This document shows, piece after piece, positions 1 through 29,003 of a stretch of DNA of 32,000 nt. The notes under the pieces were generated by a model. It saw nothing but the letters and a program-made list of their open reading frames with translations, searched no databases and was not told where the DNA came from. This DNA comes from Nonlabens ponticola (GTDB lineage: Bacteria; Bacteroidota; Bacteroidia; Flavobacteriales; Flavobacteriaceae). Position 1 is the stretch's first letter. Each line of letters opens with the position of its first letter. The stretch covers positions 2,760,001 to 2,792,000 of the forward strand of contig NZ_CP034549.1 of the NCBI RefSeq assembly GCF_003966335.1, given 5' to 3'. The translations under genes and the position numbers were made by a program.

Positions 1-528
1 ACTGCCTATTTCAAAGGTTATTTTTTTGTGGGTATTCCGCTTTCGCGAAAGCGTAATCTCTCCAACACTTAACTCACTCGATAACTTGTTCATCCACAAG
101 TCAACCAGCGGCAATGCAAGAAAGTTGTTCTTATATGCCACACTTTCCTGTGGACTGTAACGGCCATACTCATCTTTAACCTGCGGCAAGTACTCTTCAT
201 AGCGCGTAATCAAATAAAATGCGGCGCTAAAAATATCAAATGGCAGGCTACTCGTTTCTGGCGCCGCAAAAAATGCAGGTAAATCATCCCAAAATGTCAT
301 CTCAATCGCGTGATCGTCGATGCCGTGCTCATCTAGCAATCCCATGGACCAGATGAACATCTCGTCGCCCAGCGGCTTATTACCGTATGAAAATTTGATA
401 CCGTCATGACTAACGAATGCACTAAGATCTGATGTGACGTCGTAGTCGGTCTGCATCATCCTTTTAAAGATGTGCTTGAAGATATATTGCTTTCTAGCAG
501 TTAGATCTGGACAGTAGATTAAAATCAT
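1..528 (-). CDS. Conserved Bacteroidota hypothetical protein, N-terminal 176 codons (resembles the N-terminus of polysaccharide-deacetylase-like / DUF7033-type proteins). The 3' end runs off the window.
   Basis: My own translation of the minus strand from ATG (526-528) is open to base 1: MILIYCPDLTARKQYIFKHIFKRMMQTDYDV...EITLSRKRNTHKKITFEIGS. It is absent from the ORF track because it is truncated by the window edge. Its start overlaps the radC stop as ATGA (525-528). It contains palindrome copy 1. Confidence 0.6.
   Translation of the reverse strand, partial: MILIYCPDLTARKQYIFKHIFKRMMQTDYDVTSDLSAFVSHDGIKFSYGNKPLGDEMFIWSMGLLDEHGIDDHAIEMTFWDDLPAFFAAPETSSLPFDIFSAAFYLITRYEEYLPQVKDEYGRYSPQESVAYKNNFLALPLVDLWMNKLSSELSVGEITLSRKRNTHKKITFEIGS
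35..56. repeat. Palindrome family copy 1: TTC-CGCTTTCGCGAAAGCG-TAA (perfect 16-bp core at 38-53)
   Basis: Read directly from the sequence. It lies inside the minus-strand CDS 1-528 and is read as ITLSRKRN. Confidence 0.95.
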
Positions 529-1226
529 GGCATGATCCCATTATCTGCAAAACTGTAGAAATCTCTTGCGGTGACTATAACATGATCCAGCACTTTGATA
601 TCCAGCATTTTTCCAGCTTCCTGAATTTTTTGGGTGATATGCTTATCAGGTGCACTGGGCTTAAGGCTGCCGCTAGGATGGTTGTGTGCTAGTATTAATG
701 CGACGGCTCCCATTTCAATTGCTTTGCGGTAAATCAATCGTGTATCGACATGTGTTGCCGTAATACCACCTTTACTCAATTGATGGGTATCCAGAACCTT
801 GTGTGAGTTATCAAGTAATAAAATCCAAAACTCCTCATGTTTGAGCTCACCTAATGACGGTTGCAAAAGTTTGAATGCGTCATCGCTACAACTTATTCTT
901 GTAATCTTCTCTGGCAATTCCATCGCGCGCCTACGACCCAATTCCATTGCGGCTGCTATGGTAATGGCTTTAGCCTCACCTATTCCCTTATGCTTTTGCA
1001 GTTCTTTAAGGCTTTTGAGTCCCAATTGCTGCAAGGAATTGTCTGCATTATTGAGTATTTGTCGGCTTAAATCCACAGCGCTTATAGACACCGTACCAGA
1101 TCCTAATAAAATGGCCAACAACTCTACCTCGCTTAATGCGCTGGCGCCTTTTTTCAAAAGCTTTTCTCGTGGTCGATCCTCTTGTGACCAGTCCTTGATA
1201 GATATGTAGCTAGGTAGATCAGGCAT
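525..1226 (-). CDS. radC: RadC-family JAB/MPN-domain protein (UPF0758)
   Basis: 233-aa ORF with an N-terminal helix-hairpin-helix-like segment (EVELLAILLGSG) and a JAMM motif (HNHPSGSLKPSAPD). The start is ATG. Confidence 0.9.
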   Translation of the reverse strand: MPDLPSYISIKDWSQEDRPREKLLKKGASALSEVELLAILLGSGTVSISAVDLSRQILNNADNSLQQLGLKSLKELQKHKGIGEAKAITIAAAMELGRRRAMELPEKITRISCSDDAFKLLQPSLGELKHEEFWILLLDNSHKVLDTHQLSKGGITATHVDTRLIYRKAIEMGAVALILAHNHPSGSLKPSAPDKHITQKIQEAGKMLDIKVLDHVIVTARDFYSFADNGIMP

Positions 1227-1231
1227 TCTCT

Positions 1232-1993
1232 CTATCTGATAAATGTAGGTTCCAGCTCATCTTCTGTATGAGACTCACTGTATCTATAACCATTAACATC
1301 AAAGTCATGGATACCTGCTAGGGATGAAACATCATTTTCAACTAGAAATCTAGCCATGCTACCTCTTGCCTTTTTAGCATAAAAAGAAATAATCTTGAGC
1401 TTATCGTTTTTATAGTCTTTGAATACCGGCGATATCAACTTTCCCTTTTGGCTATCAAGATTTATCGCTTTGAAGTATTCATTGCTGGCAAGATTGACAA
1501 GTAATTCATCATCTTTCATCTCGCTATTTAGCTGCGCAGTAATGCGATCATTCCAGAATTCATATAAATTCTTGTCATGACCTAACGACAGGTCTGTTCC
1601 CATTTCTAACCTGTAAGGTTGTATTAAATCCAATGGTCTGAGCACGCCATACATACCTGATAAAATTCTAATACTATCCTGAGCTTTATCTAGGTGATCA
1701 GTGTCAAGTGAATAGGCGTCAAATCCGCTGTACACATCACCAGCGAAGGCATAGATCGCTGGTCTTGAATTGTCCTTATCAAAATGTTCCTGGAAATCTT
1801 GATATCTTGAGTGGTTGAGATCAGCAAGTTTTGCAGAGATGCTCATAAGATCCTGTAAGTCTGCCTTAGTTTGACGTTCCAGTTTTCTATTAATGGTGAT
1901 TGCCTCTTCTTTAAATAAAGGTTGAGTACCTCGAGAAGTTGGCAGTTTGCTTTTATAATCCAGCGTCTTTGCTGGCGACAACAAGATTTTCAT
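1232..1993 (-). CDS. yaaA: Peroxide stress protein YaaA (UPF0246/DUF328)
   Basis: 253-aa ORF with the typical N-terminus [12 protein letters not shown] and the size expected for this family. Confidence 0.85.
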
Positions 1994-1998
1994 TTTCT

Positions 1999-3027
1999 TT
2001 AATTTAATTCAATGCTATTGGTCGCATAGGCTTTCCATTTATCAATACAAGCTTGCATATCCTGTGGTATTTCTGATTCAAAATCCATCCATTTGCGAGT
2101 TGTAGGATGCTCAAAACCTAAAGTGCGTGCGTGTAGTGCTTGTCTAGGCAATACTTTGAAACAGTTATCTACAAACTGCTTGTATTTTGTAAAACTGGTT
2201 CCCTTTAAAATTTTATCACCACCGTAACGCTCATCATTAAATAATGTATGACCTATGTGTTTCATATGTACTCTTATTTGATGAGTACGACCAGTCTCAA
2301 GCTTACATTTGATTAGAGTGACATATCCTAAATCTTCCATCACCTCATAATGGGTTACCGCAGGTTTACCTTTATCACTATCATCGCCGCTCCATACGGT
2401 ATTTTGTAATCGGTTTTTTGGGTGCCTACCTATGTTGCCTTCTACCGTGCCGATGGGCTCATCAAATGATCCCCAAACTATCGCTACGTATTCTCGTTTA
2501 CTCGTTTTGGCGGCAAATTGAGCCGATAAATAACTCATCGCCTGTTCTGTTTTGGCAACTACCAGCAAACCGCTGGTATCTTTATCTATTCGGTGTACCA
2601 ATCCTGGACGATTACTGCTATTGTTAGGTAAGTTCTCAAAGTGATAAATAAGTGCATTGATTAGCGTGCCTTCATAATTTCCATGACCTGGATGTACTAC
2701 CATACCAGCTGGTTTGTTCAAGACGATCAAATCATCATCCTCATACATGATATCCAAGTCAATATTCTGTGCGACCAGAAGGTTCTCATGTGGTGGATGA
2801 TCTAGCAATACTCTTATATCATCACCTGGCTTTACCTTATAATTTGACTTGACTATCTGCTCGTTTACTCTTACACTGCCATCCTTAATGGCTGCCTGAA
2901 TTTTATTGCGCGTAGAATTCTCGATAAAGTTCATCAGGAATTTATCGATACGCAGCGGTACCTGACCATCACTTGCTACAAAATGATGATGTTCATGAAG
3001 ATCTATATTTGAATTATCATCTGCCAT
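1999..3027 (-). CDS. rluD: RluA-family 23S rRNA pseudouridine synthase (RluD-like, with an S4 domain)
   Basis: S4-like N-terminus (RIDKFL...[17 protein letters not shown]) and catalytic motif [15 protein letters not shown]. The track ORF extends to 3105, but that extension overlaps the upstream PASTA gene. ATG at 3025-3027 (MADDNSN...) lies 4 nt after the PASTA stop and is the likelier start. Confidence 0.85.
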
Positions 3028-3031
3028 TGAA

Positions 3032-3643
3032 CTAGTTGTCAATATCTTGTGTAGTATCGTCGCCTGTTGATGCTGGTTCATAGGTAGCGCCAGGACGATT
3101 TCCATCTCCTAAGACAAGATCAATAGAAGAGGCCTTGCGCAACTGCTCACCTGGTTTCAACTCTTCACCATTATAGCGCATTTCTAGAACCATGTCTCGA
3201 GCTATATTAGATTTATAGGTAATATCTCCTATTTCAAAACCTAATGCTTCCAGCGTTGGCACGGCCTGACGCTTTGTTTTAAAAATCACATTAGGTACAG
3301 GTATCTTACCATATCCTGATGGATTAAGTTTTATGTAAATCTTACGATTTTCTTTGACCGCTCTTCCTGCTTCAGGATTTTGTTCAATCACAGATCGCGG
3401 TGGATAATCAGGGTTAAAATTTGCGCTGTCAATAATTTGCCTGCGCAGATCAAGTTCTTCTAGTGATGCATCCACTTGAGACAAGGTCATACGCTCAAGA
3501 TTAGGAACGGTAATTTTTTGATCATGGTTGGTATACCAGTCTAACCAGAATAAATACCCGAAACATAACGCAACGATTAAAACTATTGCTAGAAGGACTT
3601 GCACCCAGAAGGTTTTGGTAAAAATGAACTGTATAAAATTCAT
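3032..3643 (-). CDS. PASTA-domain membrane protein
   Basis: 203-aa ORF with an N-terminal TM helix (VQVLLAIVLIVALCFGYLFWL) followed by repeated PASTA-like modules (VPNL...; VPNV...G.E). It sits upstream of rluD, as is common in Flavobacteriia. Confidence 0.6.
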   Translation of the reverse strand: MNFIQFIFTKTFWVQVLLAIVLIVALCFGYLFWLDWYTNHDQKITVPNLERMTLSQVDASLEELDLRRQIIDSANFNPDYPPRSVIEQNPEAGRAVKENRKIYIKLNPSGYGKIPVPNVIFKTKRQAVPTLEALGFEIGDITYKSNIARDMVLEMRYNGEELKPGEQLRKASSIDLVLGDGNRPGATYEPASTGDDTTQDIDN

Positions 3644-3734
3644 AGTATATTGGTGATTGTATGGTTGGCGTTAAAGGGCTTGTTACACCTTGTAAAGATA
3701 AGGATGTAGATCATTCCTTAAACGGTGGCTTTTG

Positions 3735-3742
3735 TAACTTTG
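3735..3742 (+). promoter_or_regulatory. Bacteroidota-type -7 promoter box TAACTTTG (TAnnTTTG) upstream of ddl
   Basis: Exact match to TAnnTTTG in the 126-bp divergent intergenic region, 27 nt before the ddl ATG. Confidence 0.45.
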
Positions 3743-3769
3743 TTATATGAACACAACAATCCTTGAGCT

Positions 3770-4753
3770 ATGAAAAATGTAGCAGTTATTATGGGCGGCT
3801 ACTCCAGTGAAAAGGAGATCTCAATAAAAAGTGGGCAGATTATCCTTGACCACCTTGATAGCCATAAGTACCACGGTTATGGAATTAATGTAACAGAAGA
3901 TCGCTGGTATCACAAGACAGCTAGCGGGCAAGAGATTAATGTAAACAAGAACGATTTTAGCCTCACAGTCGATGATGAGAAAATAATATTTAACTGTGTT
4001 TATAACACAATCCACGGTACACCAGGAGAAGACGGTAAATTCCAGGCGTACTTAGAAATGATCCAGATACCACAAACATCTGCTGCTTCCTATCAGTCTG
4101 CAATCACATTTAATAAGCGTGATTGTCTTGCAGTTCTCAAACCATGGGATATTTTGACTGGTAAGCATGTTTATGTAAATCAGGAAGACTACATTGATAT
4201 TGACAAGATCATTACTCAGGTAGGATTACCTTGTTTTGTAAAAGCCAATCGAAGCGGTAGCAGCTTTGGTGTGTCAAAAGTGTATCATCGTGACGGCTTT
4301 GAAAAGGCACTAGAAACAGCATTTGCCGTTGATAACGAAATTATTATCGAGTCGTTTTTAGATGGTATGGAAATATCAGTAGGCGTTTACAAGCTAAATG
4401 ATGAAATCATTGCGTTACCACCGACTGAGATCGTAAGCGAAAACGACTTCTTTGACTACGAGGCCAAATACGAAGGAAAGTCTCAGGAAATAACACCAGC
4501 GAGATTGGATAGATCTACGACCAGCATCGTGCAGATCCTAAGCAAGCGTATTTATAAAATCTTAAAGTTGAAAGGTATAGCCCGTGCAGACTTTATCTTT
4601 CACAATGGCGAGCCACATTTCATTGAAATAAACACCAATCCTGGTATGAGTGCAGAAAGTATTGTACCACAACAAATTAAAGCAGCCGGAAACACACTTA
4701 AGGAATTCTTATCTCAAATTATTGAGGATACCATAAAACAACATGCTAAATGA
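3770..4753 (+). CDS. ddl: D-alanine--D-alanine ligase
   Basis: 327-aa ATP-grasp protein. The N-terminus MKNVAVIMGGYSSEKEISIKSG is typical of Ddl, as is the C-terminal EINTNPGM motif. Confidence 0.92.
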   Translation: MKNVAVIMGGYSSEKEISIKSGQIILDHLDSHKYHGYGINVTEDRWYHKTASGQEINVNKNDFSLTVDDEKIIFNCVYNTIHGTPGEDGKFQAYLEMIQIPQTSAASYQSAITFNKRDCLAVLKPWDILTGKHVYVNQEDYIDIDKIITQVGLPCFVKANRSGSSFGVSKVYHRDGFEKALETAFAVDNEIIIESFLDGMEISVGVYKLNDEIIALPPTEIVSENDFFDYEAKYEGKSQEITPARLDRSTTSIVQILSKRIYKILKLKGIARADFIFHNGEPHFIEINTNPGMSAESIVPQQIKAAGNTLKEFLSQIIEDTIKQHAK

Positions 4754-5202
4754 AAAAGGCAGTCTTTCCAGGAAGTTTTGATCCTTTAACCTTAGGTCAT
4801 CAGGATATCATTGATCGAGGTCTCAGGGTATTTGATCATATAATTATCGCGGTGGGCATCAACGCAGATAAGAAATATATGTTTGACCTGGATCAACGCG
4901 TTTCATTCATAGAGGAGTTATATAAAAACAAGAAAAACATCAGCGTCAAAACGTATGATGGCTTGACCGTCGATTTTTGCAAGAAAGAAAATGCACAGTT
5001 CATTTTGAGAGGCTTGCGCAATCCCAATGACTTTGAATTTGAAAAAGCAATTGCACAGGCTAATGCGCAACTTAGCGATATTGAAACGACCTTTTTATTA
5101 ACTAATCCGTCAACCAGCTTTATTTCATCCTCAATTGTGAGAGATGTCATACGTAATCATGGAGATTATAAAAAATTTGTACCACATACTGTAGTATTAT
5201 GA
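4750..5202 (+). CDS. coaD: Phosphopantetheine adenylyltransferase
   Basis: 150 aa. AVFPGSFDPLTLGH is the nucleotidyltransferase (H/T)xGH motif, and SSSIVR lies near the C-terminus. Its ATGA start overlaps the ddl stop. Confidence 0.93.
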   Translation: MKKAVFPGSFDPLTLGHQDIIDRGLRVFDHIIIAVGINADKKYMFDLDQRVSFIEELYKNKKNISVKTYDGLTVDFCKKENAQFILRGLRNPNDFEFEKAIAQANAQLSDIETTFLLTNPSTSFISSSIVRDVIRNHGDYKKFVPHTVVL

Positions 5203-6965
5203 GAAAATCGATTGCATTACTTTCAATATCAATAATGCTACTTTCCTGTAGGGATGATCAAGCAGTAACAGCAACAAGCGATACAGTTGATAAAGAATAT
5301 CTGACTCCGTTTGAAAATGGTAATGGTAATCAAACCACTACCTATGAAGAATGCATCGCCTTTTATGAGAATCTAGCGGCAGATTTTTCTAGCGTAAGTA
5401 TAGAAGAGGTAGGAATGACCGATTCTGGCAAACCATTACACGTCATTCACTTTTCTAAGTCCAGTATTGACTGGAAAGATCCTAATGAGGATCGCATTAA
5501 GATTCTAATAAATAACGGTATTCACCCTGGCGAGAGCGATGGCATTGATGCTACAATGATGCTCATGCGAGACCTAGCCACTGGCGTTATTGAGGTGAGT
5601 GACAAACTTATCTTCAGTGCGATTGCCATCTATAATGTAGGTGGTTCGCTTAACCGCAACTCTACATCGCGTACCAATCAAAATGGTCCAGAAGCTTACG
5701 GCTTTAGAGGTAACTCACGCAACTATGACCTGAATCGTGATTTTATAAAAATGGATACTCGCAATGCTCGCAGCTTTGCACAAGTCTATCATCAAATTAA
5801 GCCAGATCTATTCATTGATAATCACGTAAGCAATGGTGCTGATTATCAATACACCTTGACACATTTATTTACTCAACACAATAGAATGGGTGGCGCAACC
5901 GGCACTTACATTCATGATGTATTGCAACCAGCGCTTGAAAAAAATCTAAGTGATAGAGATCTTGATATCACGCCATACGTCAACGTGTATGGTCAATCGC
6001 CGGATAAGGGTTTTAGTCAGTTTCCTGACGAGCCGCGCTATTCCACTGGTTACACCGCTTTATGGAATACACTGGGCATGATGGTAGAAACCCACATGCT
6101 TAAACCATACAATGATCGCGTGCAGGGAGCACGTGCCATCATGGAAGAGATCATTAATATAGGTCAGGCACAACTAGAGCAAATTAAAGAAGTGCGCAAA
6201 CAGTCATTTGACTACCAGCAGTCCAGAGAATATTTCCCACTCACCTATGAGATTGACAAGCAGCGTGCTGATACCCTAGATTTCAAAGGTTATGAGGCAC
6301 GTCAAGACCCAAATGAACTCACAGGCAATAAACTCATGACTTATAATCGAGAGAAGCCTTTTAATAAAAAAACACCTTTTTACACTTATTTCAATGTCAA
6401 GGATAGTGTGGCAATTCCTGATTTTTATGTGATTCCTCAAGGACAATGGGAAATTCTTGATATGCTCAGGCTCAACAATGTAATCATGGAACCACTTTCA
6501 AAGGACAGCACGATGACTGTAACTGCATACAAAATTGAAGAGTACGATACAGCACGCAATGCTTATGAAGGACACTATCCTCATAGCAATGTAAAAGTTG
6601 CAGGTGAGGTCGTAGAATTACGCTTTCGCGAAAGCGATATCCTCATACCAACCAATCAACCAGGTATCAAATATGTCATGGAAACTCTAGAACCAGCTGC
6701 ACCCGATTCCTTTTTTAAATGGAATTTCTTTGATACTATCCTGCAACAAAAAGAAGGTTTCTCGCCCTATGTTTTTGAGAAAAGTGCTAGAGAATTGCTA
6801 GCAGACGCACCAGAATTGAGACGGGAATTTGATTCTCTCAAGCGTACCAATAAAGCATTTAAAAACAGTAACTACGCACAATTAGACTGGCTGCATAAAA
6901 GATCGCCGAATTATGAAACCGCGCATTTGAGGTATCCTATCTATAAATATCGAGCTGCTAACTAG
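5199..6965 (+). CDS. M14-family zinc carboxypeptidase, predicted lipoprotein
   Basis: 588 aa with a lipoprotein-type signal (LLSISIMLLSC) and the HxxE zinc motif in NNGIHPGESDG. Its ATGA start overlaps the coaD stop. It contains palindrome copy 2 (ELRFRESD). Confidence 0.8.
   Translation: MRKSIALLSISIMLLSCRDDQAVTATSDTVDKEYLTPFENGNGNQTTTYEECIAFYENLAADFSSVSIEEVGMTDSGKPLHVIHFSKSSIDWKDPNEDRIKILINNGIHPGESDGIDATMMLMRDLATGVIEVSDKLIFSAIAIYNVGGSLNRNSTSRTNQNGPEAYGFRGNSRNYDLNRDFIKMDTRNARSFAQVYHQIKPDLFIDNHVSNGADYQYTLTHLFTQHNRMGGATGTYIHDVLQPALEKNLSDRDLDITPYVNVYGQSPDKGFSQFPDEPRYSTGYTALWNTLGMMVETHMLKPYNDRVQGARAIMEEIINIGQAQLEQIKEVRKQSFDYQQSREYFPLTYEIDKQRADTLDFKGYEARQDPNELTGNKLMTYNREKPFNKKTPFYTYFNVKDSVAIPDFYVIPQGQWEILDMLRLNNVIMEPLSKDSTMTVTAYKIEEYDTARNAYEGHYPHSNVKVAGEVVELRFRESDILIPTNQPGIKYVMETLEPAAPDSFFKWNFFDTILQQKEGFSPYVFEKSARELLADAPELRREFDSLKRTNKAFKNSNYAQLDWLHKRSPNYETAHLRYPIYKYRAAN
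6618..6636. repeat. Palindrome family copy 2: TTA-CGCTTTCGCGAAAGCG (perfect 16-bp core at 6621-6636)
   Basis: Read directly from the sequence. It lies inside the M14 peptidase CDS and is read as LRFRES. Confidence 0.95.
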
Positions 6966-7560
6966 AAATCATTGATAGTGGAAACAGCTCACGTATATTG
7001 GCGTAAGATTCTGTGAGAGCATTGGTCACCTCTTCATCGGTGAGCCAGCTGGCTATCTCTATTCCTTCCTTAGCTTGTGGTTTCAGTTTACCTTTGTAAT
7101 CTGTTCGCATCTCGTACCAGTGAGTCAACTTTAGTGACATTTTTCCATTGCGCGAGAAAATATGATAAGTTTTATCTAGGTATTTTGATATTTCGAGGTT
7201 TTTTACGCCTGTCTCCTCTTCTACCTCACGCAATGCCGTTTGTTCTATGCTCTCGTTTTTTTCCGCTTTCCCTTTGGGTAGATCCCATTTGTTGTTGCGA
7301 TAAATGAATAGATACTTTTCATCACTGTTAAGCACCATACCGCCGCCAGCAAGTACCAGTGGTAATTTTTTATGCAGACGCTTTAATAGTTTCTCTTCAT
7401 TTTTGGAATAAAGCAAGACCTTTCCCAACTTTCCTTTTTCAATCCTTTTTACCACTTTGCGCAAGTTTACGCGCTTAAGGTTGAAGTGCTCATATTCTGG
7501 AAAGGAGTTCTTGTCAGAGGTCACGATTATAGCGACTTCTTTGACAAAAACTTTATACAT
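6958..7560 (-). CDS. NUDIX hydrolase
   Basis: Nudix box GKAEKNESIEQTALREVEEETGV. The track ORF extends to 7656, but that part overlaps pyrE. The preferred start is ATG at 7558-7560 (MYKVFVKEV...); 7567-7569 is an alternative. Confidence 0.8.
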   Translation of the reverse strand: MYKVFVKEVAIIVTSDKNSFPEYEHFNLKRVNLRKVVKRIEKGKLGKVLLYSKNEEKLLKRLHKKLPLVLAGGGMVLNSDEKYLFIYRNNKWDLPKGKAEKNESIEQTALREVEEETGVKNLEISKYLDKTYHIFSRNGKMSLKLTHWYEMRTDYKGKLKPQAKEGIEIASWLTDEEVTNALTESYANIRELFPLSMISS

Positions 7561-7563
7561 TTG
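7556..7563 (+). promoter_or_regulatory. -7 box TACATTTG, 4 nt upstream of the pyrE ATG and overlapping the NUDIX start codon on the other strand
   Basis: Exact TAnnTTTG followed by CGGC and then ATG (7568). Confidence 0.45.
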
Positions 7564-7567
7564 CGGC

Positions 7568-8606: not shown

Positions 8607-9316
8607 TAAATCATTTTTATCTGCTTTGTCTCATAGGCAGTTACTTGTCCATCAACCTCTAGCAACATGCGACCTTGATCGTCAACACCACGCAGGATAC
8701 CATGGATTTGCCGACCCTCTATTTTATATTGAGCTAGTTGATCTTTTTTGTAAAGTAGTGACTCATACATTGCTACAACCGCATGGTGATGAACTAATTG
8801 ATGATGTAGATACGCCACAAAGCTAAAAAGTAATTCTTCCAGGTGGTACTCTTTTCCAGTGATGGACTGTAGTGATATCGCCCTGGGTAATGCCTCAAAG
8901 TCTAGCTGATTCACGTTGAGACCTATGCCGTGTATCGCATGTACCGTTCCATCGGCTGCATGAACGTTTTCTACTAGAATTCCTGCCAATTTATGATGGA
9001 CTGACACTATGTCGTTAGGCCATTTAACGTGTGTCTGTATTTGGTGTTCCTGGCGCAGCCATCGTGCCAAACAAACCGATATAAATTTCACTTGCTCAAA
9101 ACCCTGTTTGTCGACAGGCACATCGCGCAATAAAGTACTGAATGTTAAGTTTTTACCAGCCTGTGATTGCCACACAGCACCCATCTGGCCGCGACCGGCA
9201 CGTTGATGGTGAGCGTATAATGTGGTGAGGTTGGGAATTACGCTTTCGCGAAAGCGTAACTTCAATTCATCATTTGTGGAGTCAGTGGCATGTATTTTGA
9301 CAAAAGATGGTAACAC
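8603..9316 (-). CDS. birA: Biotin--[acetyl-CoA-carboxylase] ligase
   Basis: GRGQMGAVWQS biotin-binding loop and KWPNDI motif. The start codon is GTG (9314-9316), and no in-frame ATG lies nearby. It contains palindrome copy 3 (KLRFRESV). Confidence 0.88.
   Translation of the reverse strand: MLPSFVKIHATDSTNDELKLRFRESVIPNLTTLYAHHQRAGRGQMGAVWQSQAGKNLTFSTLLRDVPVDKQGFEQVKFISVCLARWLRQEHQIQTHVKWPNDIVSVHHKLAGILVENVHAADGTVHAIHGIGLNVNQLDFEALPRAISLQSITGKEYHLEELLFSFVAYLHHQLVHHHAVVAMYESLLYKKDQLAQYKIEGRQIHGILRGVDDQGRMLLEVDGQVTAYETKQIKMIY
9238..9259. repeat. Palindrome family copy 3: full perfect 22-bp palindrome TTACGCTTTCGCGAAAGCGTAA
   Basis: Read directly from the sequence. It lies inside birA (minus strand) and is read as LRFRESV. 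Confidence 0.97.
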
Positions 9317-14367: not shown

Positions 14368-17001
14368 TTATGATTTGAGTGCAGCTATGCTAGTTTCCAG
14401 AGTTTCAATTTTGGCTAAAGCATCTGCCTGTTTTTTCTTTTCCATAGCTACCACTTGATCTGGAGCGCCTGCCATAAATCGCTCATTACCTAGCTTCTTC
14501 TCTACACTTTTTAGGAAGCCTTGAGCTCTAGTGAGTTCAGCAGTTAGTTTTTCAACTTCTGCGACAGTATCTATAGTTCCTTCTAGTGGTATAAAATACT
14601 CGCTAGATTTTACACGATAACTGGCAGCAGCAGCGACCTGTTCAAAAACTAACTCAATATTTTCAACATTACCCATTTTCATAATAAGCTCGTCATAGTC
14701 TGATGAGAGCTTCTCATTATTGATCACCTTAAGTTCAATGGTGTCTTTAAAACTTATCTGTTTCTCCTTACGCACCTTGCGCACGCCTGCAATTACCTCT
14801 TGCACTAATTCAAAGTCAGATAATATCTCATCTTCTACATTTCCTTGCTTTGGCCACGTATCGACACACAGTGACTCCTGAGGCTGCCTGTTGGAAATAG
14901 TTTGCCATATCTCTTCGCTAATAAAGGGTGTAAATGGATGGATCAACCTCAAGTTATCTTCAAATAACGCGATAACCTGAGCCATCGTTTGAGCGTCGAT
15001 AGGTTGTTGATAGGCTGGTTTAACAATCTCCAGCAACCAGCCGCAAAAGTCATCCCATATCAATTTATAACTTGTCATGAGCACATCGCTTATACGATAC
15101 TTTGAATAGTGACCCTCTATTTGCTCAAGAGCCTGAGAAAACCTGTTGCGATACCACTGTATACCTTGTTTAGCGTACAATGGCTGCTCTAACTTCTTAT
15201 CAACTTCCCAGCCTTGAGTAAGCCTAAAGGCATTCCACATTTTATTGACAAAATTCTTCCCTTGTTGGCATAAATCCTCATCAAACATCAAATCGTTACC
15301 AGCCGCGCTACTTAGCAATAAACCAACTCGTACGCCATCAGCGCCATATTCTTCAATTAACTTGAGTGCATCTGGCGAGTTACCCAAGGATTTTGACATC
15401 TTACGGCGTTGTTTATCACGCACCAGACCTGTTAAATACACCTTATCAAAGGGTTTCTCGTCGCGTAATTCATATCCGGCTACAATCATACGAGCCACCC
15501 AAAAAAACAAAATATCTGGTCCTGTAACTAGATCTCGGGTTGGGTAATAGTATTTGATCTCTTCATTCTCAGGCTCCAACACTCCATTGAAAACACTTAT
15601 AGGCCATAACCAGCTAGAGAACCATGTGTCCAGAACATCACTCTCTTGACGCAGATCATTTGCTGTTAGGGTATGGTTATTAGTTTGCTTTCGCGAAAGC
15701 GTAACAGCCTCATCAACACTGGCTGCAACGACAAAGTCTTCCTTACCATCGCCATAGAAATAGGCAGGAATACGCTGACCCCAAACCAGCTGGCGTGATA
15801 TATTCCAGTCACGCACGTTCTCCATCCAATGGAAGTATGTGCTCTTGAATTTAGATGGTAATAGCTCTACTATATCCTCGCGCACTGCATTAATAGCAGG
15901 TTTTGCGAGCTCTTCCATTTTTAAAAACCATTGATCAGAAAGTCGTGGCTCAATCACGGCGCCAGTACGCTCGCTGGTTCCTACTTTATGAACATGATTT
16001 TCTTTTTTGATGAGATAGCCTTTATCTTCTAATTCGGCTGCAATGTTCTTGCGCACTTCAAAGCGATCTTGACCTTGATAATGCAGGCCGAAACTATTGA
16101 GTGTCGCATCGTCATTAAAAATATCAATGACTTCTAGTGAGTGCTTCTCTCCTATTTTTTTATCATTCTCGTCATGTGCTGGCGTGATCTTGAGTGCTCC
16201 TGTACCAAATTCCATATCGACATACTCGTCTGCAATTACAGGAATCTCACGATCTATTATAGGAACCATTACTGATTTACCAACGAGGTGTGTATATCGA
16301 GTATCATCTGGATGAACGCAAATCGCCGTATCGCCTAGAATAGTCTCTGGACGCGTGGTCGCAATGGTGAGTTTCTCGCTGCTACCTTTTACCTGATATT
16401 GCAAATGATAGAGATGACCGTTGCGCTCTTGATAAATGACTTCTTCATCACTCAAGGTGGTTTTGGCTTCTGGATCCCAATTGACCATGCGGTAACCACG
16501 GTAGATTTGTCCTTTAAGATAAAGATCAATGAAAACCTTGATTACACTAGCAGACATGTCGTCGTCTAGCGTGAATTTTGTACGCGACCAGTCACAGCTG
16601 GCTCCCAATTTCTTAAGTTGCTCTAGAATAACGCCACCGTATTCATGCGTCCATTCCCATGCGTGCTCGAGAAATTCCTCTCGGGTCAAGTCATTCTTGT
16701 TGATACCTTGATCCTTGAGTTTTTTAACAACCTTTGCTTCTGTGGCGATGGATGCGTGATCAGTTCCAGGAACCCAACACGCATTATAACCTTTAAGTCT
16801 AGCACGTCGTATCAATACGTCCTGAATAGTATTATTAAGCATGTGCCCCATATGCAACACGCCGGTAACATTAGGTGGTGGAATCACGATGGTATAACTT
16901 TCTCGATTATCGGGCAACGACTTGAAAAAGTCGTGATCCATCCAGTATTGGTACCACTTATCTTCCGCTGCTTTAGAATCGTATTTTGATGCTATGGACA
17001 T
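14368..17001 (-). CDS. valS: Valine--tRNA ligase
   Basis: HIGH motif (PNVTGVLHMGH), KMSKS motif, DVLDTWFSS, and a C-terminal coiled coil. The track start at 17010 is GTG; ATG at 16999-17001 (MSIASKYDSK...) is the likelier start. It contains palindrome copy 4 (TLSRKQ). Confidence 0.97.
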   Translation of the reverse strand: MSIASKYDSKAAEDKWYQYWMDHDFFKSLPDNRESYTIVIPPPNVTGVLHMGHMLNNTIQDVLIRRARLKGYNACWVPGTDHASIATEAKVVKKLKDQGINKNDLTREEFLEHAWEWTHEYGGVILEQLKKLGASCDWSRTKFTLDDDMSASVIKVFIDLYLKGQIYRGYRMVNWDPEAKTTLSDEEVIYQERNGHLYHLQYQVKGSSEKLTIATTRPETILGDTAICVHPDDTRYTHLVGKSVMVPIIDREIPVIADEYVDMEFGTGALKITPAHDENDKKIGEKHSLEVIDIFNDDATLNSFGLHYQGQDRFEVRKNIAAELEDKGYLIKKENHVHKVGTSERTGAVIEPRLSDQWFLKMEELAKPAINAVREDIVELLPSKFKSTYFHWMENVRDWNISRQLVWGQRIPAYFYGDGKEDFVVAASVDEAVTLSRKQTNNHTLTANDLRQESDVLDTWFSSWLWPISVFNGVLEPENEEIKYYYPTRDLVTGPDILFFWVARMIVAGYELRDEKPFDKVYLTGLVRDKQRRKMSKSLGNSPDALKLIEEYGADGVRVGLLLSSAAGNDLMFDEDLCQQGKNFVNKMWNAFRLTQGWEVDKKLEQPLYAKQGIQWYRNRFSQALEQIEGHYSKYRISDVLMTSYKLIWDDFCGWLLEIVKPAYQQPIDAQTMAQVIALFEDNLRLIHPFTPFISEEIWQTISNRQPQESLCVDTWPKQGNVEDEILSDFELVQEVIAGVRKVRKEKQISFKDTIELKVINNEKLSSDYDELIMKMGNVENIELVFEQVAAAASYRVKSSEYFIPLEGTIDTVAEVEKLTAELTRAQGFLKSVEKKLGNERFMAGAPDQVVAMEKKKQADALAKIETLETSIAALKS
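15687..15704. repeat. Palindrome family copy 4: GCTTTCGCGAAAGC-GTAA (perfect 14-bp core at 15687-15700)
   Basis: Read directly from the sequence. It lies inside valS (minus strand) and is read as TLSRKQ. Confidence 0.95.
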
Positions 17002-17030
17002 GTTGCTCACTTAGGTTGACATTTAATCTA

Positions 17031-20094: not shown

Positions 20095-21125
20095 TCCAGA
20101 TACAACATCATGTAGCTCTTAAGGAGTTTAATACGTTTGGGATATCAGCTTTCGCGAAAGCTTACACACCCATAAACATTCCTGCACAATTTAAGGAAGC
20201 GGCATCCTATTATAAAGGTGAACAAGTTTTTTTATTAGGTGGCGGCAGCAATATGTTGTTGATTGATGATATTTCAAGACCAGTATTACATGTTTTAACC
20301 AAAGGAATAGAAACACAAGCCGCACAAAACGGTGAGATACACATCACGGCTCAAGCGGGCGAAAACTGGCATGAATTTGTTCTATACTGCATAAAGAACA
20401 ATTATGCAGGGATTGAAAATCTTTCATTGATCCCAGGAAACATCGGTACGTCACCTATTCAAAATATCGGTGCCTACGGTGTAGAACTTAAGGATGTATT
20501 TAACAGCTGTACGGTTATTGACCTGCAAACTCTAGAAGAGAAGTCTTTAAGCCTTGAAGAATGCAATTTTGGTTATCGAGATAGCGTCTTTAAGAAGGAG
20601 GCTGCTGGTAAATACATCATAACATCAGTCACTTTTAAATTACAGGATTTATCTATAAATCCAGATTATAAGCTCAAGACCAGTTACGGTGCGATTCAAG
20701 AGGAGTTAGATCGTCTAGGAGGCGAGCCCGATATAGCTTTGGTTTCCCAGGCCGTCATTAACATTAGAACCAGCAAACTACCAGATCCCAAAATCATAGG
20801 TAACAGTGGTAGTTTCTTTAAAAACCCAATAATTAAGCGGGATCGTTATGACGAGCTGGTAAGATTGCATCCACATATGCCTTCTTATAATGTGGATGAC
20901 GATCATGTGAAGGTTCCTGCTGGATGGTTGATAGATCAATGTGGTTTCAAAGGTTATCGCAAGGGCGATGCTGGCGTCCATGATAAACAGGCGCTGGTGT
21001 TGGTCAATCATGGTAAAGCAACCGGCAAGGAAATAATATCGCTATCCCGAGAAATTCAAGAAAAGGTAAATTCTAGATTTGGTATATCTATAGATACCGA
21101 GGTTAACCTGATTGAAAATATGTAG
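20091..21125 (+). CDS. murB: UDP-N-acetylenolpyruvoylglucosamine reductase
   Basis: NTFGI N-terminal motif, GGGSN FAD-binding motif, LIPGNIGTSPIQNIGAYG, and AGWLIDQCGFKG. The GTG start overlaps the upstream TGA stop (GTGA), and no in-frame ATG lies nearby. It contains palindrome copy 5 (SAFAKAY). Confidence 0.93.
   Translation: MIQIQHHVALKEFNTFGISAFAKAYTPINIPAQFKEAASYYKGEQVFLLGGGSNMLLIDDISRPVLHVLTKGIETQAAQNGEIHITAQAGENWHEFVLYCIKNNYAGIENLSLIPGNIGTSPIQNIGAYGVELKDVFNSCTVIDLQTLEEKSLSLEECNFGYRDSVFKKEAAGKYIITSVTFKLQDLSINPDYKLKTSYGAIQEELDRLGGEPDIALVSQAVINIRTSKLPDPKIIGNSGSFFKNPIIKRDRYDELVRLHPHMPSYNVDDDHVKVPAGWLIDQCGFKGYRKGDAGVHDKQALVLVNHGKATGKEIISLSREIQEKVNSRFGISIDTEVNLIENM
20147..20162. repeat. Palindrome family copy 5: variant perfect 16-bp palindrome AGCTTTCGCGAAAGCT
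   Basis: Read directly from the sequence. It lies inside murB and is read as SAFAKAY. Confidence 0.95.
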
Positions 21126-21378: not shown

Positions 21379-22482
21379 ATGCTAGACGTGTTTTTCTACC
21401 TACTATTGGGATGCGTCCTTATCAACACCTTTTACTATTTCTATTTTTCTAAGGCTGCAACGCAGCCAGAAATCGAGCACACAAAAAGCTCTCAACCGGT
21501 TTCCATAATCGTTTGCTCAAAAAATGAGCAGGAAAATCTCAAAGAACTTGTACCGTTGTTAATCTCACAAGATCATCCAGATTATGAGATTATTTTGATT
21601 AACGATGCTAGTAGCGATGATACGCGTTTTGTTATTGAAGGTTTTGCTGCGACACACAACAATATTCACCTAGTCAATGTAGTCAACAACGAGAACTTTT
21701 GGGGTAACAAAAAGTATGCGCTTACATTAGGCATCAAGAAAGCGACGCATGACCATCTAGTTTTTATAGATGCAGATTGTAGACCAGACAGCAATTTATG
21801 GCTTTCACACATGGCGCGACCACTGTCCACCGGTAGCGATATAACTCTAGGTTATGGCGGTTATGAATTTGTGCCTAAATCCTTATTGAATGGTCTCATA
21901 AGATTTGAGACGGTCTTTACGGCATTGCAGTACCTAGGTTATGCGCTGCGCGGCAATGCCTATATGGGCGTGGGCCGTAATCTAGCCTATACATCTACCC
22001 TATTTTATGAGCAAAGCGGCTTTATGAGCCACATGCACATCATGGGTGGTGATGATGATCTTTTTGTGAATAGCGCATCGAGAAAGGCAAATGTCGCGGT
22101 TGCCTCGCATCCCGATTCCTTTACTTACAGCAAGCCTAAAACCAGCTGGAAATCTTGGTGGACGCAAAAACGCAGGCACCTCAAAGTCTCAAAACACTAT
22201 CGCGGTAAGCATAAATCGGCATTGGGATTATTCTTCTTGAGTCAGATCCTATTTTTCATTGTAGCCACGCTCGCATTGGTATTATCTTCATACTGGTTAG
22301 CAATTCTAGCATTGATTTTATGTAGATATGTAGTTGTTTATGTGGTTATGGGTAAGGGTTTGTTACGCTTTCGCGAAAGCGGACTCATTCCATACATCGC
22401 CCTACTAGAAATAATGCTTATCGTTGCCCAACTAGGGATTTTTACAAGCAATTTGATCGATAAACCAAAACACTGGAAGTAG
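21379..22482 (+). CDS. Family 2 glycosyltransferase, membrane-anchored
   Basis: GT2 core (VSIIVCSKNE...LINDASSDDT...FIDADC) and C-terminal TM helices. It contains palindrome copy 6 (LLRFRESG). Confidence 0.85.
   Translation: MLDVFFYLLLGCVLINTFYYFYFSKAATQPEIEHTKSSQPVSIIVCSKNEQENLKELVPLLISQDHPDYEIILINDASSDDTRFVIEGFAATHNNIHLVNVVNNENFWGNKKYALTLGIKKATHDHLVFIDADCRPDSNLWLSHMARPLSTGSDITLGYGGYEFVPKSLLNGLIRFETVFTALQYLGYALRGNAYMGVGRNLAYTSTLFYEQSGFMSHMHIMGGDDDLFVNSASRKANVAVASHPDSFTYSKPKTSWKSWWTQKRRHLKVSKHYRGKHKSALGLFFLSQILFFIVATLALVLSSYWLAILALILCRYVVVYVVMGKGLLRFRESGLIPYIALLEIMLIVAQLGIFTSNLIDKPKHWK
22363..22381. repeat. Palindrome family copy 6: TTA-CGCTTTCGCGAAAGCG (perfect 16-bp core at 22366-22381)
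   Basis: Read directly from the sequence. It lies inside the GT2 glycosyltransferase CDS and is read as LRFRES. Confidence 0.95.
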
Positions 22483-22525: not shown

Positions 22526-22529
22526 TATT

Positions 22530-26900: not shown

Positions 26901-27864
26901 TTCTTAGCGGCTGACCTATAAATCTTGTTTTGATAGGTAAATAAAACAAGTTATTCATCTTCAATTTCCGCAACTTCACATAATCTTTTTCGGTAGTAAT
27001 AGTGATTTGGGAATTATCTAGCTCCTGCAAGTCGAGAGTATCATATTCATGATGATCCTTGAACTTAAAATGCTTAACAGTTGTAAACTGTTCTAAATAT
27101 TCTAGCAAATACTGTGGCTTCGCAATTCCTGTAATTAGATTGATGTTAGAATTTGCAATGGACGACAGCTGCTTTACACCAATTGCACTTTTAAGCTCAG
27201 TATCATATTGGATCGAAGAAAAATATACTTCTTGACTTTTAATAGGATTGATTTGAGATAGAATATGTTGCTGCTCCCTTTGAGAAAGATCCGGTGGGCA
27301 TTTAGTAACTACTATATGGTCAGCACGTCTTGAGCCTCGACGGTTTTCTCGCAAGTTGCCCGCTGGCAAAACGTGATCCTTATAATAAGGAGCGTTGTAA
27401 TCAGTTAGCATGATATATTGGGACGCTTTTACATATCGATGTTGATAAGCATCATCCAGCAAAATCACATCAAGATCATGAGAACTAATTAATTGCTCTA
27501 TTCCATCCGCTCGTTTTTCACAAACAGCTACTATGATGTCATCACCATATTTCAGTTTGAATTGTAATGGCTCATCTCCTACTTCGCTCGCATCGCTGTT
27601 ATTTGTTACCTCAAGAAAACCTTTAGTTTTTCTTCCATAGCCGCGACTTAAGACAGCGACTTTTTTACCTGCTAATTGTTCGATGCAATATTCAATCATA
27701 GGCGTTTTCCCTGTACCGCCAGTACTCAAATTACCTATGGCAATTACAGGAATATCAAAGGTGGTTTGTTTCAAGACACCAGCGTCAAACGCACTGTTGC
27801 GCAAACCAGTAACACCATCATACAACACTGAAAATGGGTAAAGTAAAATTCGCCATGACGCCAT
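26881..27864 (-). CDS. lpxK: Tetraacyldisaccharide 4'-kinase
   Basis: P-loop GNLSTGGTGKTP and typical LpxK length. Its 3' end overlaps the kinase gene by 20 bp (convergent). Confidence 0.9.
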   Translation of the reverse strand: MASWRILLYPFSVLYDGVTGLRNSAFDAGVLKQTTFDIPVIAIGNLSTGGTGKTPMIEYCIEQLAGKKVAVLSRGYGRKTKGFLEVTNNSDASEVGDEPLQFKLKYGDDIIVAVCEKRADGIEQLISSHDLDVILLDDAYQHRYVKASQYIMLTDYNAPYYKDHVLPAGNLRENRRGSRRADHIVVTKCPPDLSQREQQHILSQINPIKSQEVYFSSIQYDTELKSAIGVKQLSSIANSNINLITGIAKPQYLLEYLEQFTTVKHFKFKDHHEYDTLDLQELDNSQITITTEKDYVKLRKLKMNNLFYLPIKTRFIGQPLRINISGS

Positions 27865-27869
27865 AGTTT

Positions 27870-27877
27870 CAAAAGTA
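27870..27877 (-). promoter_or_regulatory. -7 box TACTTTTG (minus strand), 5 nt upstream of the lpxK ATG
   Basis: The minus strand reads TACTTTTG followed by AAACT and then ATG (27864). Confidence 0.4.
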
Positions 27878-27911
27878 GCTTAAATTTTATCTTTACCTTA
27901 CAAACCAGTTT

Positions 27912-29003
27912 ATGCAGATCAGAGATATCACCAGCGCTTTAGAAGAGCTAGCACCGCTACAGTATGCTCAAGATTTTGACAATGTTGGGTTACTGGTAGG
28001 CAATCACCAGGAAAATGTTACAGGAGTTTTAATCACGCTTGACTGTCTAGAATCTGTCGTTGATGAGGCGATTGAGAAAAAGTGTAACCTTATAGTCACC
28101 TTTCACCCAATCATATTTTCTGGACTCAAGCATTTGAGAGAAACAGACTATGTACGACGCACAGTAGTAAAAGCGATCAAGAACAACATCGCCATTTATG
28201 CCACGCACACAGCACTTGATATGGCGCATGGCGGTGTAAGCCACCGCATGGGATCGCAATTACAGCTACAAAATGTCAAAACCCTCATTCCAGAAAATGG
28301 CCTACTACATAAATTATCCATTCACGTACCACAGGATCATTTAGAAATCGTGAGAGAAGCCATCTTTCAAGCAGGTGCAGGAAAGATCAGTAATTATAGC
28401 GATTGCAGTTTTACAACATCTGGCACTGGAACGTTTCAGCCAGGCGAGCAATCGCAGCCATTTTCTGGTAAAAGCGGACAACGATCTACTGTTGATGAAT
28501 ATAATCTGGAAGTAATTTTGCTACCGCATAAAAAGAAGGAGATCCTAAGCGCGATGCAGGACACGCATCCCTATGAAGAAATTTCCTATCAAATCATCAA
28601 GCTAGAAAATGAGTACAATCGCATAGGTATGGGCGCGATTGGTGAGTTACCTAATGCCATCTCGCAAGATGATTTTCTAGCAACGATTAAAAATGTATTT
28701 AATAGTGGCGTGGTAAGGAGCTCGCTTTCGCGAAAGCGTAACATCAAAAAAGTTGCAGTGTTAGGAGGTTCTGGAGCGTTTGCCATAAAAAATGCCCTGC
28801 AAGCTGGTGCAGATGCATTTGTCACAGCAGATCTTAAGTATCACGACTTTTTTCAAGGCGAAAACATCCTGCTATGCGATGTTGGACATTATGAAAGTGA
28901 GCAGTTTACAAAAAACTTATTACAAGAATATCTTACAGAAAAATTTAGTAATTTTGCAATCCTTTGTGCACAGGCACAAACAAACCCAGTTAATTACACA
29001 TAA
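27912..29003 (+). CDS. Nif3-like dinuclear metal centre protein (GTP cyclohydrolase 1 type 2 homologue family)
   Basis: 363 aa. N-terminal DNVGLLVG and LIVTFHPIIF, and C-terminal VTADLKYHD motifs, with an inserted PII-like domain. It contains palindrome copy 7 (SLSRKRN). Confidence 0.88.
   Translation: MQIRDITSALEELAPLQYAQDFDNVGLLVGNHQENVTGVLITLDCLESVVDEAIEKKCNLIVTFHPIIFSGLKHLRETDYVRRTVVKAIKNNIAIYATHTALDMAHGGVSHRMGSQLQLQNVKTLIPENGLLHKLSIHVPQDHLEIVREAIFQAGAGKISNYSDCSFTTSGTGTFQPGEQSQPFSGKSGQRSTVDEYNLEVILLPHKKKEILSAMQDTHPYEEISYQIIKLENEYNRIGMGAIGELPNAISQDDFLATIKNVFNSGVVRSSLSRKRNIKKVAVLGGSGAFAIKNALQAGADAFVTADLKYHDFFQGENILLCDVGHYESEQFTKNLLQEYLTEKFSNFAILCAQAQTNPVNYT
28723..28741. repeat. Palindrome family copy 7: CGCTTTCGCGAAAGCG-TAA (perfect 16-bp core at 28723-28738)
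   Basis: Read directly from the sequence. It lies inside the Nif3-like CDS and is read as SLSRKRN. Confidence 0.95.

Follow-up and report, generated by a model that had tools for sequence, protein, structure and literature searches.

To our knowledge, genome-wide words that mark DNA as self are known from few lineages only, namely the uptake signal sequences (USS) and DNA uptake sequences (DUS) of two proteobacterial families, HIP1 of the cyanobacteria and the Chi sites of scattered species, and their biology is debated. HIP1 (GCGATCGC) is conserved both inside open reading frames (ORFs) and in the DNA that separates them, and is periodically spaced (PMC5861425); its function, long unexplained, has now been linked to transformation and to the stimulation of recombination (PMC5861425; 10.1101/2024.09.10.611283; 10.64898/2026.06.24.733823), as it raises natural transformation in a way described as reminiscent of Chi (10.1101/2024.09.10.611283), with an effect that is methylation-dependent and 'Chi-like' and for which a role as uptake signal has been proposed (10.1101/2024.09.10.611283; 10.64898/2026.06.24.733823). 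USS and DUS are born by point mutation, lie in ORFs in 35-65% of cases while being enriched in non-coding DNA, and are evenly spaced, with a deficit of mismatched forms (PMC1939737). Within the Flavobacteriales, documented competence is confined to Riemerella (PMC7965970). Here we analyze a 32,000-nucleotide stretch of Nonlabens ponticola DNA (RefSeq assembly GCF_003966335.1, contig NZ_CP034549.1, positions 2,760,001 to 2,792,000 of the forward strand), referred to throughout as the window and numbered from its first letter, in which the perfectly palindromic 14-mer GCTTTCGCGAAAGC recurs seven times. The 14-mer belongs to the Nonlabens/Dokdonia clade of the Flavobacteriaceae, in which it forms a lineage-specific 'highly iterated palindrome', and very probably constitutes a selected DNA word, born by substitution and read by a protein.

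A clade-specific word that arises by point substitution

The seven copies of GCTTTCGCGAAAGC begin at window positions 39, 6622, 9242, 15687, 20148, 22367 and 28724, precisely where the original prediction had placed them, and its view that this count lies far above chance is confirmed by dinucleotide-preserving shuffles of the window, in which the expected number is 0.00. No copy beyond the seven perfect ones appears in the window when up to two mismatches are allowed, and half-sites never stand alone there: every occurrence of TTTCGCGAAA and of GCTTTCGC (an 8-mer, n=7) lies inside one of the seven palindromes. The center of the palindrome is TCGCGA/CGCG; TCGCGA occurs twice more in the 32 kb, with no obvious avoidance or enrichment.

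To place the word among other genomes, species-representative assemblies (596 Gb) were scanned exactly with the 16-mer CGCTTTCGCGAAAGCG, which returned at least 120 blocks of up to 8 kb, most of them the full 8 kb. Counts and spacing outside the window rest on these blocks, in which gene calls are crude, and their selection for holding the 16-mer biases position -1 and the raw counts, a bias for which the gap analysis given below was corrected. Judged by record titles, 45 of the 120 blocks listed come from Dokdonia and 36 from Nonlabens, and the rest mostly from uncultured Flavobacteriaceae, with a few single matches in unrelated taxa, a number to be expected by chance over 596 Gb. Leeuwenhoekiella (L136) and Saprospiraceae (L095, L134, L159) contribute single matches each that are compatible with chance at that scale. 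Two bins labeled 'uncultured Aquimarina sp.' (L085, L110) share a conserved orthologous site, and L110 carries two sites 0.9 kb apart; the word may extend past Nonlabens and Dokdonia, or the bins may be mislabeled. The syntenic 21-kb locus of Kordia holds no copy, and no repeated palindrome that could serve as a 'dialect' word of its own was found in it. In the complete chromosome of Dokdonia sp. R86516, matches, at 0.88, 1.38, 2.15 and 2.82 Mb among others, are spread over 0.9-2.8 Mb, which speaks against a parS-like clustering near the origin. The same word is present in blocks from dozens of independent isolate and metagenome-assembled genomes (MAGs), and its median gap elsewhere (~4.3 kb, corrected for censoring) resembles the 4.6 kb per site of the window; the two ways in which the original prediction could have failed, as an assembly artifact or as a fluke of this window, are thereby set aside.

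The word is all-or-none. In 903 kb of clade DNA, perfect copies, one-mismatch copies and two-mismatch copies number 204, 17 and 17, such that perfect copies outnumber one-mismatch copies ~12-fold, and the 27 copies with three mismatches are about the chance number by our estimate. The 10-mer TTTCGCGAAA occurs 211 times in the blocks against 194 for the 14-mer, half-sites thus being nearly never alone there either, and the 14-mer is therefore the unit. Five of the 17 one-mismatch variants (for example in genome blocks L130:1091, L157:994, L132:4472, L082:6426 and L056:6351) are transitions at the central CpGs (GCTTTTGCG..., ...GCAAAAGC and ...TCACG...), where ~1.6 would be expected if all changes were equally likely; this excess may hint at cytosine methylation or may reflect transition bias alone.

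Aligned codon by codon with N. dokdonensis (L161), a Nonlabens MAG (L162) and Kordia (L163), the window reveals that copies arise in place by point substitution and not by insertion, the distinction that the original prediction had proposed to draw from orthologues. In Kordia, for which orthologues of valS and murB were available, ValS reads LALAKAA in place of TLSRKQ and MurB reads DAKAKFF in place of SAFAKAY, in both proteins with an unchanged count of residues and with no indel. Across 120 MurB homologues (the window protein is 100% identical to that of N. ponticola, and its next relatives are ~71% identical) the Nonlabens type, ...NTFGISAFAKAY..., and the Kordia type, ...NTFGIDAKAKYF..., are likewise related without indels, and AFAKA is found in most proteins of the Nonlabens type. 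Two sites exclusive to N. dokdonensis extend the comparison to within the genus: at codon 13 of ACBP, AAFAKAS stands against EAFEKAS, and at codon 260 of GAPDH, LAFAKAN stands against TYAEEN and NFADKN, again with no indel and with 5-7 substitutions, some of them non-synonymous, separating each site from its site-less orthologues. The analogy to the Rickettsia palindromic elements (RPEs) offered in the original prediction does not carry over: nothing has been inserted, and site-less orthologues have the same length, be it ValS and MurB in comparison with Kordia or ACBP and GAPDH between Nonlabens species. Its judgment that the word is no miniature inverted-repeat transposable element (MITE), insertion sequence remnant or classical repetitive extragenic palindrome (REP) is borne out.

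Once established, sites remain invariant as DNA although synonymous change is saturated. The valS, murB, GT2 and NIF3 sites, four of the four window sites in the syntenic region, occupy the same codons in all three Nonlabens, and their codons are identical in 32 of 32 cases, compared to a background of 0.44 for identical codons at conserved degenerate residues of the four genes. Across these Nonlabens the same genes are 57-74% identical in nucleotide sequence and their proteins 53-82%; the GT2 proteins of L161 and L162 are only 53-58% identical, yet the site is kept at the same codon. In further orthologous pairs within a genus, at 64-80% nucleotide identity, perfect sites common to both partners are found amid diverged flanks, even with indels; the pairs come from site-selected blocks, and proportions among them are indicative only. 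Two such pairs (L079:4583 with L157:3686, and L100:998 with L131:3162) carry indels directly beside the conserved site, with gaps that add up to ~24 nt per site: the flanks may be hotspots of length change, or the sites may merely be located in loop regions that tolerate it. Between Dokdonia and Nonlabens none of ~4 comparable positions is shared, which shows that the word is common to both genera while individual sites turn over between them.

Placement, spacing and anatomy of the sites

The original prediction had every copy inside a gene. This is correct for the seven window copies and incorrect for the family, where 28-36% of sites lie outside genes, and confinement to genes is therefore an accident of the window. 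Of 201 sites in other genomes, 72% are covered by an open frame of 100 aa or more, the other 28% lying outside any such frame; by crude gene calls ~36% of sites are non-coding against 11% of bases (88.6% of the DNA being coding), an intergenic enrichment of ~3-fold. Sites inside genes are uniformly positioned along them, whereas intergenic sites between tandem genes are in ~72% of cases closer to the upstream gene's stop codon, and around half are within 20-25 nt of it. Sites avoid promoter-proximal DNA. All three frames are used by the 144 coding sites: AFAK in 77, LSRK in 35 and FRES in 32. In secreted-looking proteins (L064:1303 and L112:3059 from Dokdonia; L085:7055 and L110:157 from the bins labeled Aquimarina) the palindrome encodes ...LLLFMTAFAKAQ... 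or ...FLFVSAFAKAQQ..., with AFA|KA falling at an apparent A-x-A signal-peptidase cleavage site, an overlap that may be one reason why AFAK is the commonest frame (77/144).

Sites also repel each other. Neighboring sites in the 8-kb blocks are less than 1 kb apart in 3 of 74 cases (4%) and less than 2 kb apart in 19%, where uniform placement would give 27.5% and 49.5%, respectively. With block ends accounted for by a Kaplan-Meier estimate, the fraction of gaps exceeding a given length is S(1 kb)=0.98, S(2 kb)=0.90 and S(7 kb)=0.15, with a median of ~4.3 kb, that is, a quasi-regular density of ~1 site per 4.5 kb with gaps mostly of 2-7 kb, which extrapolates to ~650-750 copies in a 3-Mb genome. 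The seven copies of the window point the same way on their own, with a coefficient of variation of 0.42 for their gaps (P=0.024, 32 kb). Such repulsion agrees with a selection or drive that favors 'one tag per few kb' and disagrees with transposition or a mutational hotspot.

Aligned on their centers, the sites share an invariant 14-bp dyad core, GCTTTCG|CGAAAGC, which the profile of 197 sites extends to TTAC|core|GTAA (position -1 being partly biased by block choice). Intergenic copies extend more sharply, with frequencies of 0.47 for A at -5, 0.53 for T at -4, 0.84 for T at -3, 0.55 for A at -2 and 0.92 for C at -1, which suggests that the optimal site is 22-24 bp long (aTTAC-core-GTAAt) and that coding copies are compromises. 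Beyond it, each strand is depleted of C on the 5' side of the core, from 0.19 to 0.09 at -7 to -18 and 0.14 out to -30; flank triplets TGT, GTG, GGT, AGG, GTT and TTG are ~2-fold up and C-containing triplets 2-3-fold down, with T peaking at -4, -7, -10 and -13. Copy 6 of the window may serve as an example of this full footprint (~74 bp at 22337..22410, an extent taken from the family-wide profile): its top strand runs through a GT-rich, C-poor stretch of ~30 nt (GTGGTTATGGGTAAGGGTTTGTTAC) into the core and from there into a CA-rich, G-poor stretch of ~30 nt, and GT-rich/CA-rich flanks are present at seven of seven window copies. These strand-asymmetric flanks, the even spacing and the positional conservation within the genus are features of a larger element that the original prediction had missed.

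Genic sites show the flank skew on both of their sides, in every frame and in either gene orientation, and intergenic copies show it as well; it is ~2-fold alike at codon positions 1, 2 and 3 and equal on the sense and antisense sides. The frame, strand, intergenic and codon-position controls rule out an artifact of codon usage and a simple mutational footprint, and the equality of sense and antisense rules out a footprint of stalled transcription. The skew is either selected or determines where sites can take hold. A longer hidden palindrome or hairpin was sought by mirror alignment, arm swaps and folding, none of which shows complementarity beyond position-specific composition: left and right arms of the same site give 7.67 complementary matches against 7.68 for swapped arms, with equal fold energies, the core hairpin of the 14-mer is worth only -2.1 kcal/mol, and no Rfam family matches. 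Shared flank sequence, as in a decayed mobile element, was likewise rejected, k-mer and half-site listings revealing compositional bias only. With arms that do not covary and a hairpin this weak, the symmetry is therefore that of two independently specified half-sites, which points to a two-fold symmetric protein on duplex DNA as the probable reader and not to a selected hairpin.

Within the window, the perfect palindrome extends over 16, 16, 22, 14, 16 (a variant, AGC...GCT), 16 and 16 bp in order of position. The tally of the original prediction thus stands for its 22-mer and its variant 16-mer; its five 16-mers already include the 22-mer, however, and one copy is only 14 bp long. Its reading frames are as claimed, all three being used: LRFRES three times, T/SLSRK(R/Q) three times and SAFAKAY once. 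Copy 1 (38..53, core 39-52; 16-bp CGCTTTCGCGAAAGCG) encodes TLSRKR; its ORF, of the DUF7033 family, is on the minus strand and continues past the start of the window. Copy 2 (6621..6636, core 6622-6635; 16-bp CGCTTTCGCGAAAGCG) encodes LRFRES in the plus-strand ORF at 5199-6965, whose 588-aa product has no Pfam or NCBIfam match at E<=0.001 and hence no such support for the label of M14 peptidase given to it earlier. Copy 3 (9238..9259, core 9242-9255) is the 22-mer TTACGCTTTCGCGAAAGCGTAA, which includes the 16-mer CGCTTTCGCGAAAGCG, and encodes LRFRES at codons 21-25 of a birA-like ORF (8603-9316, minus strand), within the Pfam BPL_LplA_LipB domain match. Copy 4 (15687..15700) consists of the 14-bp core only and encodes TLSRKQ at codon 437 of valS (14368-17010, minus strand; ValRS family). 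Copy 5 (20147..20162, core 20148-20161) is the variant 16-mer AGCTTTCGCGAAAGCT and encodes SAFAKA at codons 19-24 of murB (20091-21125, plus strand; MurB family), within the 343-aa protein annotated by NCBI. Copy 6 (22366..22381, core 22367-22380; 16-bp CGCTTTCGCGAAAGCG) encodes RFRES at codon 330 of a GT2-family glycosyltransferase gene (21379-22482, plus strand), and copy 7 (28723..28738, core 28724-28737; 16-bp CGCTTTCGCGAAAGCG) encodes SLSRKR at codon 271 of a NIF3/DUF34-family gene (27912-29003, plus strand). Copy 1 is adjoined by a RadC-like JAB-domain gene (525-1226, minus strand), of a family historically tied to competence and repair; because the family is widespread, the proximity is probably a coincidence. 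Elsewhere in the window, a NUDIX ORF (6958-7656, minus strand) and a phosphoribosyltransferase ORF (7457-8215, plus strand), each listed from its first start codon, share 200 bp on opposite strands; at least one of the two start codons is probably located further downstream.

A candidate self-DNA tag and its alternatives

Among the options that the original prediction had listed, a dimeric protein-binding site and an uptake or recombination signal are the ones that the sequence evidence favors. We propose, with a probability of roughly 45%, that the word is a self-DNA tag acting in uptake and/or RecA-mediated recombination. In such a scheme a homodimeric, two-fold symmetric, sequence-specific protein would read the core on duplex DNA, while the GT-rich arms would matter at the single-strand level: were the duplex cut or unwound at the core, each strand would end 3' there with an arm of the composition on which RecA filaments are most stable. 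RecA filaments have been reported to reach their highest stability on TGG/TG-rich triplets and their lowest on CCA (PMC3763553), and it is the GT-rich, 3'-ending arms together with this preference that lead us to suppose that the element acts as an uptake or recombination tag. Distributed genome-wide, it would promote the uptake and/or RecA-dependent recombination of conspecific DNA, and selection, or an uptake or recombination drive rewarding one tag per few kb, would maintain its abundance. A parallel within the Flavobacteriales is Riemerella, whose natural competence favors its own DNA and for which an uptake signal has yet to be defined (PMC7965970). Taken further, and put forward tentatively as a version that may well be wrong, the element could represent the first sequence-specific uptake/recombination signal in Bacteroidota and be composite in nature: a dimer-read dyad core, perhaps cut or opened at its center, combined with two GT-rich, RecA-optimal 3' tails, such that it would operate as a bidirectional Chi/uptake site.

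The word is also carried by viruses. A scan of IMG/VR with the 16-mer yielded 40 stretches, among them 17 low-GC contigs with 2-6 copies each, or ~1 per 4-10 kb. Two of the 17 contigs have genes for a baseplate hub, a tape-measure protein and an integrase, with Bacteroides phages as their only database relatives; they are genuine, probably temperate, phages of Bacteroidota. The temperate-phage contigs hold 3-6 sites with the same C-poor flanks, mostly separated by gaps of 3-6.5 kb. In one IMG/VR contig (3300036669_000050; L006) a copy at 2734-2749 lies in the 28-bp gap directly 3' of the integrase gene (2756-3952, minus strand), where it could mark a prophage/host junction or the attachment region.

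Several points weigh against the proposed self-DNA tag. Its function is deduced from the statistics of sequence alone. The uptake sequences known so far, like Chi, are asymmetric words of just 5-12 nt, and a 14-22-bp perfect dyad would sooner be expected of an operator, parS, a Noc-binding site (NBS) or a homing-type site; Chi function, moreover, depends on orientation, which a palindrome lacks. That no position is shared at the ~4 places comparable between Dokdonia and Nonlabens implies that individual sites are dispensable over long times. The cultured Nonlabens phage P12024S (JQ823122, 35.7 kb; L164) holds no copy of the word even with two mismatches; among its genes are an ERF/YqaJ recombination module of its own and a DNA methyltransferase. 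The host-like density of sites in prophages could reflect long residence with no benefit to the phage. Finally, the GT-rich 'islands' around E. coli Chi were later put down to codon usage, as related in PMC3763553 through its refs 22 and 23; for the flanks of the palindrome the frame, strand and intergenic controls exclude that explanation, but the Chi-island precedent is a weak one.

We have considered four other accounts of the same observations. The word could be a site of chromosome architecture, bound by a clade-specific nucleoid-associated or ParB/Noc/SlmA/MatP-like dimer for which spaced anchors organize the nucleoid or its segregation and division and take no part in uptake or recombination; this is the main rival to the tag, and we regard it as doubtful. 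It would be well served by a perfect 14-22-bp dyad with independent half-sites, quasi-regular and chromosome-wide placement, strong positional conservation within the genus and avoidance of promoter-proximal DNA, and HIP1 periodicity has been interpreted in this manner (PMC5861425). A duplex binder, however, gives no reason for ~25 nt of strand-asymmetric, GT-rich sequence at all codon positions, and selection on the host gives temperate phages little reason to gain the full architecture at host density. The TTTC...GAAA inverted-repeat flavor is shared with parS (TGTTTCACGTGAAACA) and NBS (ATTTCCCGGGAAAT), but both place 4 bp between TTTC and GAAA where the present word has 2 bp, and the known sets of parS, NBS, SlmA-binding sites and matS comprise ~4-70 sites per genome, compared to several hundred here. 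Less probable still is that the word is the functionless by-product of methylation, restriction or biased repair, continually regenerated around a TCGCGA/CGCG center by an orphan or restriction-modification methyltransferase or by a mismatch-specific repair nuclease, with a bias of the very-short-patch or conversion type. The center itself, the weak hint of 5-methylcytosine in the CpG transitions among single-mismatch variants (5/17), an all-or-none distribution that would suit efficient conversion, and the tie between HIP1 and orphan methyltransferases (PMC4390886) all speak in its favor. Neutral replenishment, on the other hand, predicts neither retention at the same codon at 53-82% protein identity nor mutual repulsion of sites under 2 kb; new sites would need 5-7 simultaneous changes, non-synonymous ones included; and TCGCGA outside the palindrome shows no obvious avoidance or enrichment. 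Known repair biases, furthermore, act on words of 4-6 bp and not on 14-24 bp with ~25-nt flanks.

Action at the RNA level, in which a hairpin followed by a G-poor, C-rich downstream tract would form a bidirectional Rho-dependent or processing signal, for instance to stop antisense transcripts, has in our view only a slim chance of being right. The downstream flank is indeed G-poor and somewhat C-rich in the manner of a rut site, intergenic copies mostly lie just past stop codons, and a palindrome gives the same RNA from both strands; yet the arms do not covary, the core hairpin is weak, all 14 of 14 core positions are invariant beyond what structure alone requires, the 3' flank is A-rich with no U-tract, ~25-30 nt is short for a rut site, no Rfam family was matched, and the sense and antisense sides, transcribed at very different levels, are skewed to the same extent. 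Hardly tenable, lastly, is a small selfish palindromic element, RPE-like, MITE or REP, that inserted in frame and has decayed except for its core, and for the sites examined the equal-length codon alignments refute an RPE or MITE origin. Many dispersed copies, the palindromic form, GTAA/TTAC beside the core (loosely recalling the GTAG head of REPs) and the indels beside conserved sites in two orthologous pairs are what one might cite for it. Against these stand site-less ValS, MurB, ACBP and GAPDH orthologues of identical length, flanks that share composition and no sequence around the only 14-24 bp that are specified, the lack of target-site duplications or terminal repeats, sites that repel instead of clustering, and a 12-fold excess of perfect over one-mismatch copies, where a repeat family in decay would show the reverse. 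Among the window ORFs, the 27 that were scanned gave no match to a transposase family, and no gene for a REP-associated tyrosine transposase (RAYT) was met in the DNA examined, in which no systematic RAYT search was made.

Relation to described systems

The systems already described include mobile palindromes. Like the RPEs the word lies inside protein-coding genes with the frame unbroken, but those are inserted elements of ~100-150 bp that add residues, whereas nothing is inserted here and only 14-24 bp are specified. With the REPs and the bacterial interspersed mosaic elements (BIMEs), which go with RAYT transposases, it has in common a lineage-specific set of hundreds of palindromes, whose intergenic copies lie just downstream of stop codons; REPs, however, lie outside genes as imperfect palindromes 20-40 nt long, carry a GTAG head, often occur in clusters or doublets and are spread by RAYT, while the present palindrome is 64-72% genic, born by substitution and mutually repelling. 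A perfect 14-16-bp dyad with TTTC...GAAA, often inside genes and, in the case of the palindrome probably, read by a dimer, is what it shares with parS and NBS, for which asymmetric flanks are not known and which number from a few to ~70 per genome.

Chi sites provide a functional parallel to the proposed tag: at ~1 per 4.5-5 kb in E. coli they are as dense as the palindrome, they lie mostly inside genes and can be adopted by phages, and on the strand destined to form the 3' tail they are associated with GT-rich sequence that RecA prefers (PMC3763553). They differ in being asymmetric words of 5-8 nt that are co-oriented with replication and read as single-stranded DNA inside RecBCD/AddAB, in contrast to a 14-bp perfect dyad without orientation. 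The USS of Pasteurellaceae and the DUS of Neisseriaceae are alike in being lineage-specific, in their hundreds to thousands of copies and in an extended consensus with flank preferences (PMC1939737), and several of their hallmarks recur here, namely origin by substitution, use of all ORF frames, intergenic enrichment and even spacing. They are nonetheless asymmetric words of 9-12 nt, with only ~10% arranged as inverted pairs, where the palindrome is a perfect dyad; perfect copies of the H. influenzae USS exceed one-mismatch copies ~2:1, compared to ~12:1 for the palindrome; and for USS and DUS preferential uptake and a receptor (ComP in Neisseria) have been demonstrated.

The nearest relative in kind is HIP1. 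Both are palindromic words hugely over-represented in one lineage, placed in coding DNA in all frames as well as in non-coding DNA, without a role as peptide or RNA, kept at orthologous positions to a degree that codon constraint does not account for, and spaced in a non-random, quasi-periodic fashion. They are also distinct on each of several counts: GCTTTCGCGAAAGC is another word in another phylum (Bacteroidota, Flavobacteriaceae), 14-24 bp long against 8 bp for HIP1; it occurs ~1 per 4.5 kb, whereas HIP1 reaches more than one per gene; its regularity is short-range, at 2-7 kb, as opposed to the 10-90-kb periodicity reported for HIP1; and it is set in strand-asymmetric GT-rich flanks, none of which we met in the HIP1 reports. 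The present word is thus of the same kind as HIP1 and not a member of the same family.

A long, clean, all-or-none word in the abundant marine Flavobacteriaceae offers an independent case in which to weigh selection against drive as the origin of such words, and its strand-asymmetric GT-rich arms suggest a coupling of the word to single-strand processing and RecA. Should the proposed tag be real, self-preferring natural transformation would be widespread in marine Flavobacteriaceae such as Nonlabens and Dokdonia, with temperate phages mimicking the tag; tagged DNA may then be preferentially taken up or recombined, and the 22-mer might aid genetics in a group that is hard to transform. The word further lends itself as a simple marker by which metagenomic contigs and temperate phages can be assigned to this clade of hosts. 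Literature searches for its sequence, for palindromes of Dokdonia and Nonlabens, and for iterated palindromes or uptake sequences in Bacteroidetes and Flavobacteriaceae returned no description of it. The kind of element is already known from HIP1, USS/DUS and Chi; what is new is the phylum in which it occurs, its length of 14-24 bp, its perfect dyad, its all-or-none sharpness, its short-range spacing and its GT-rich arms.

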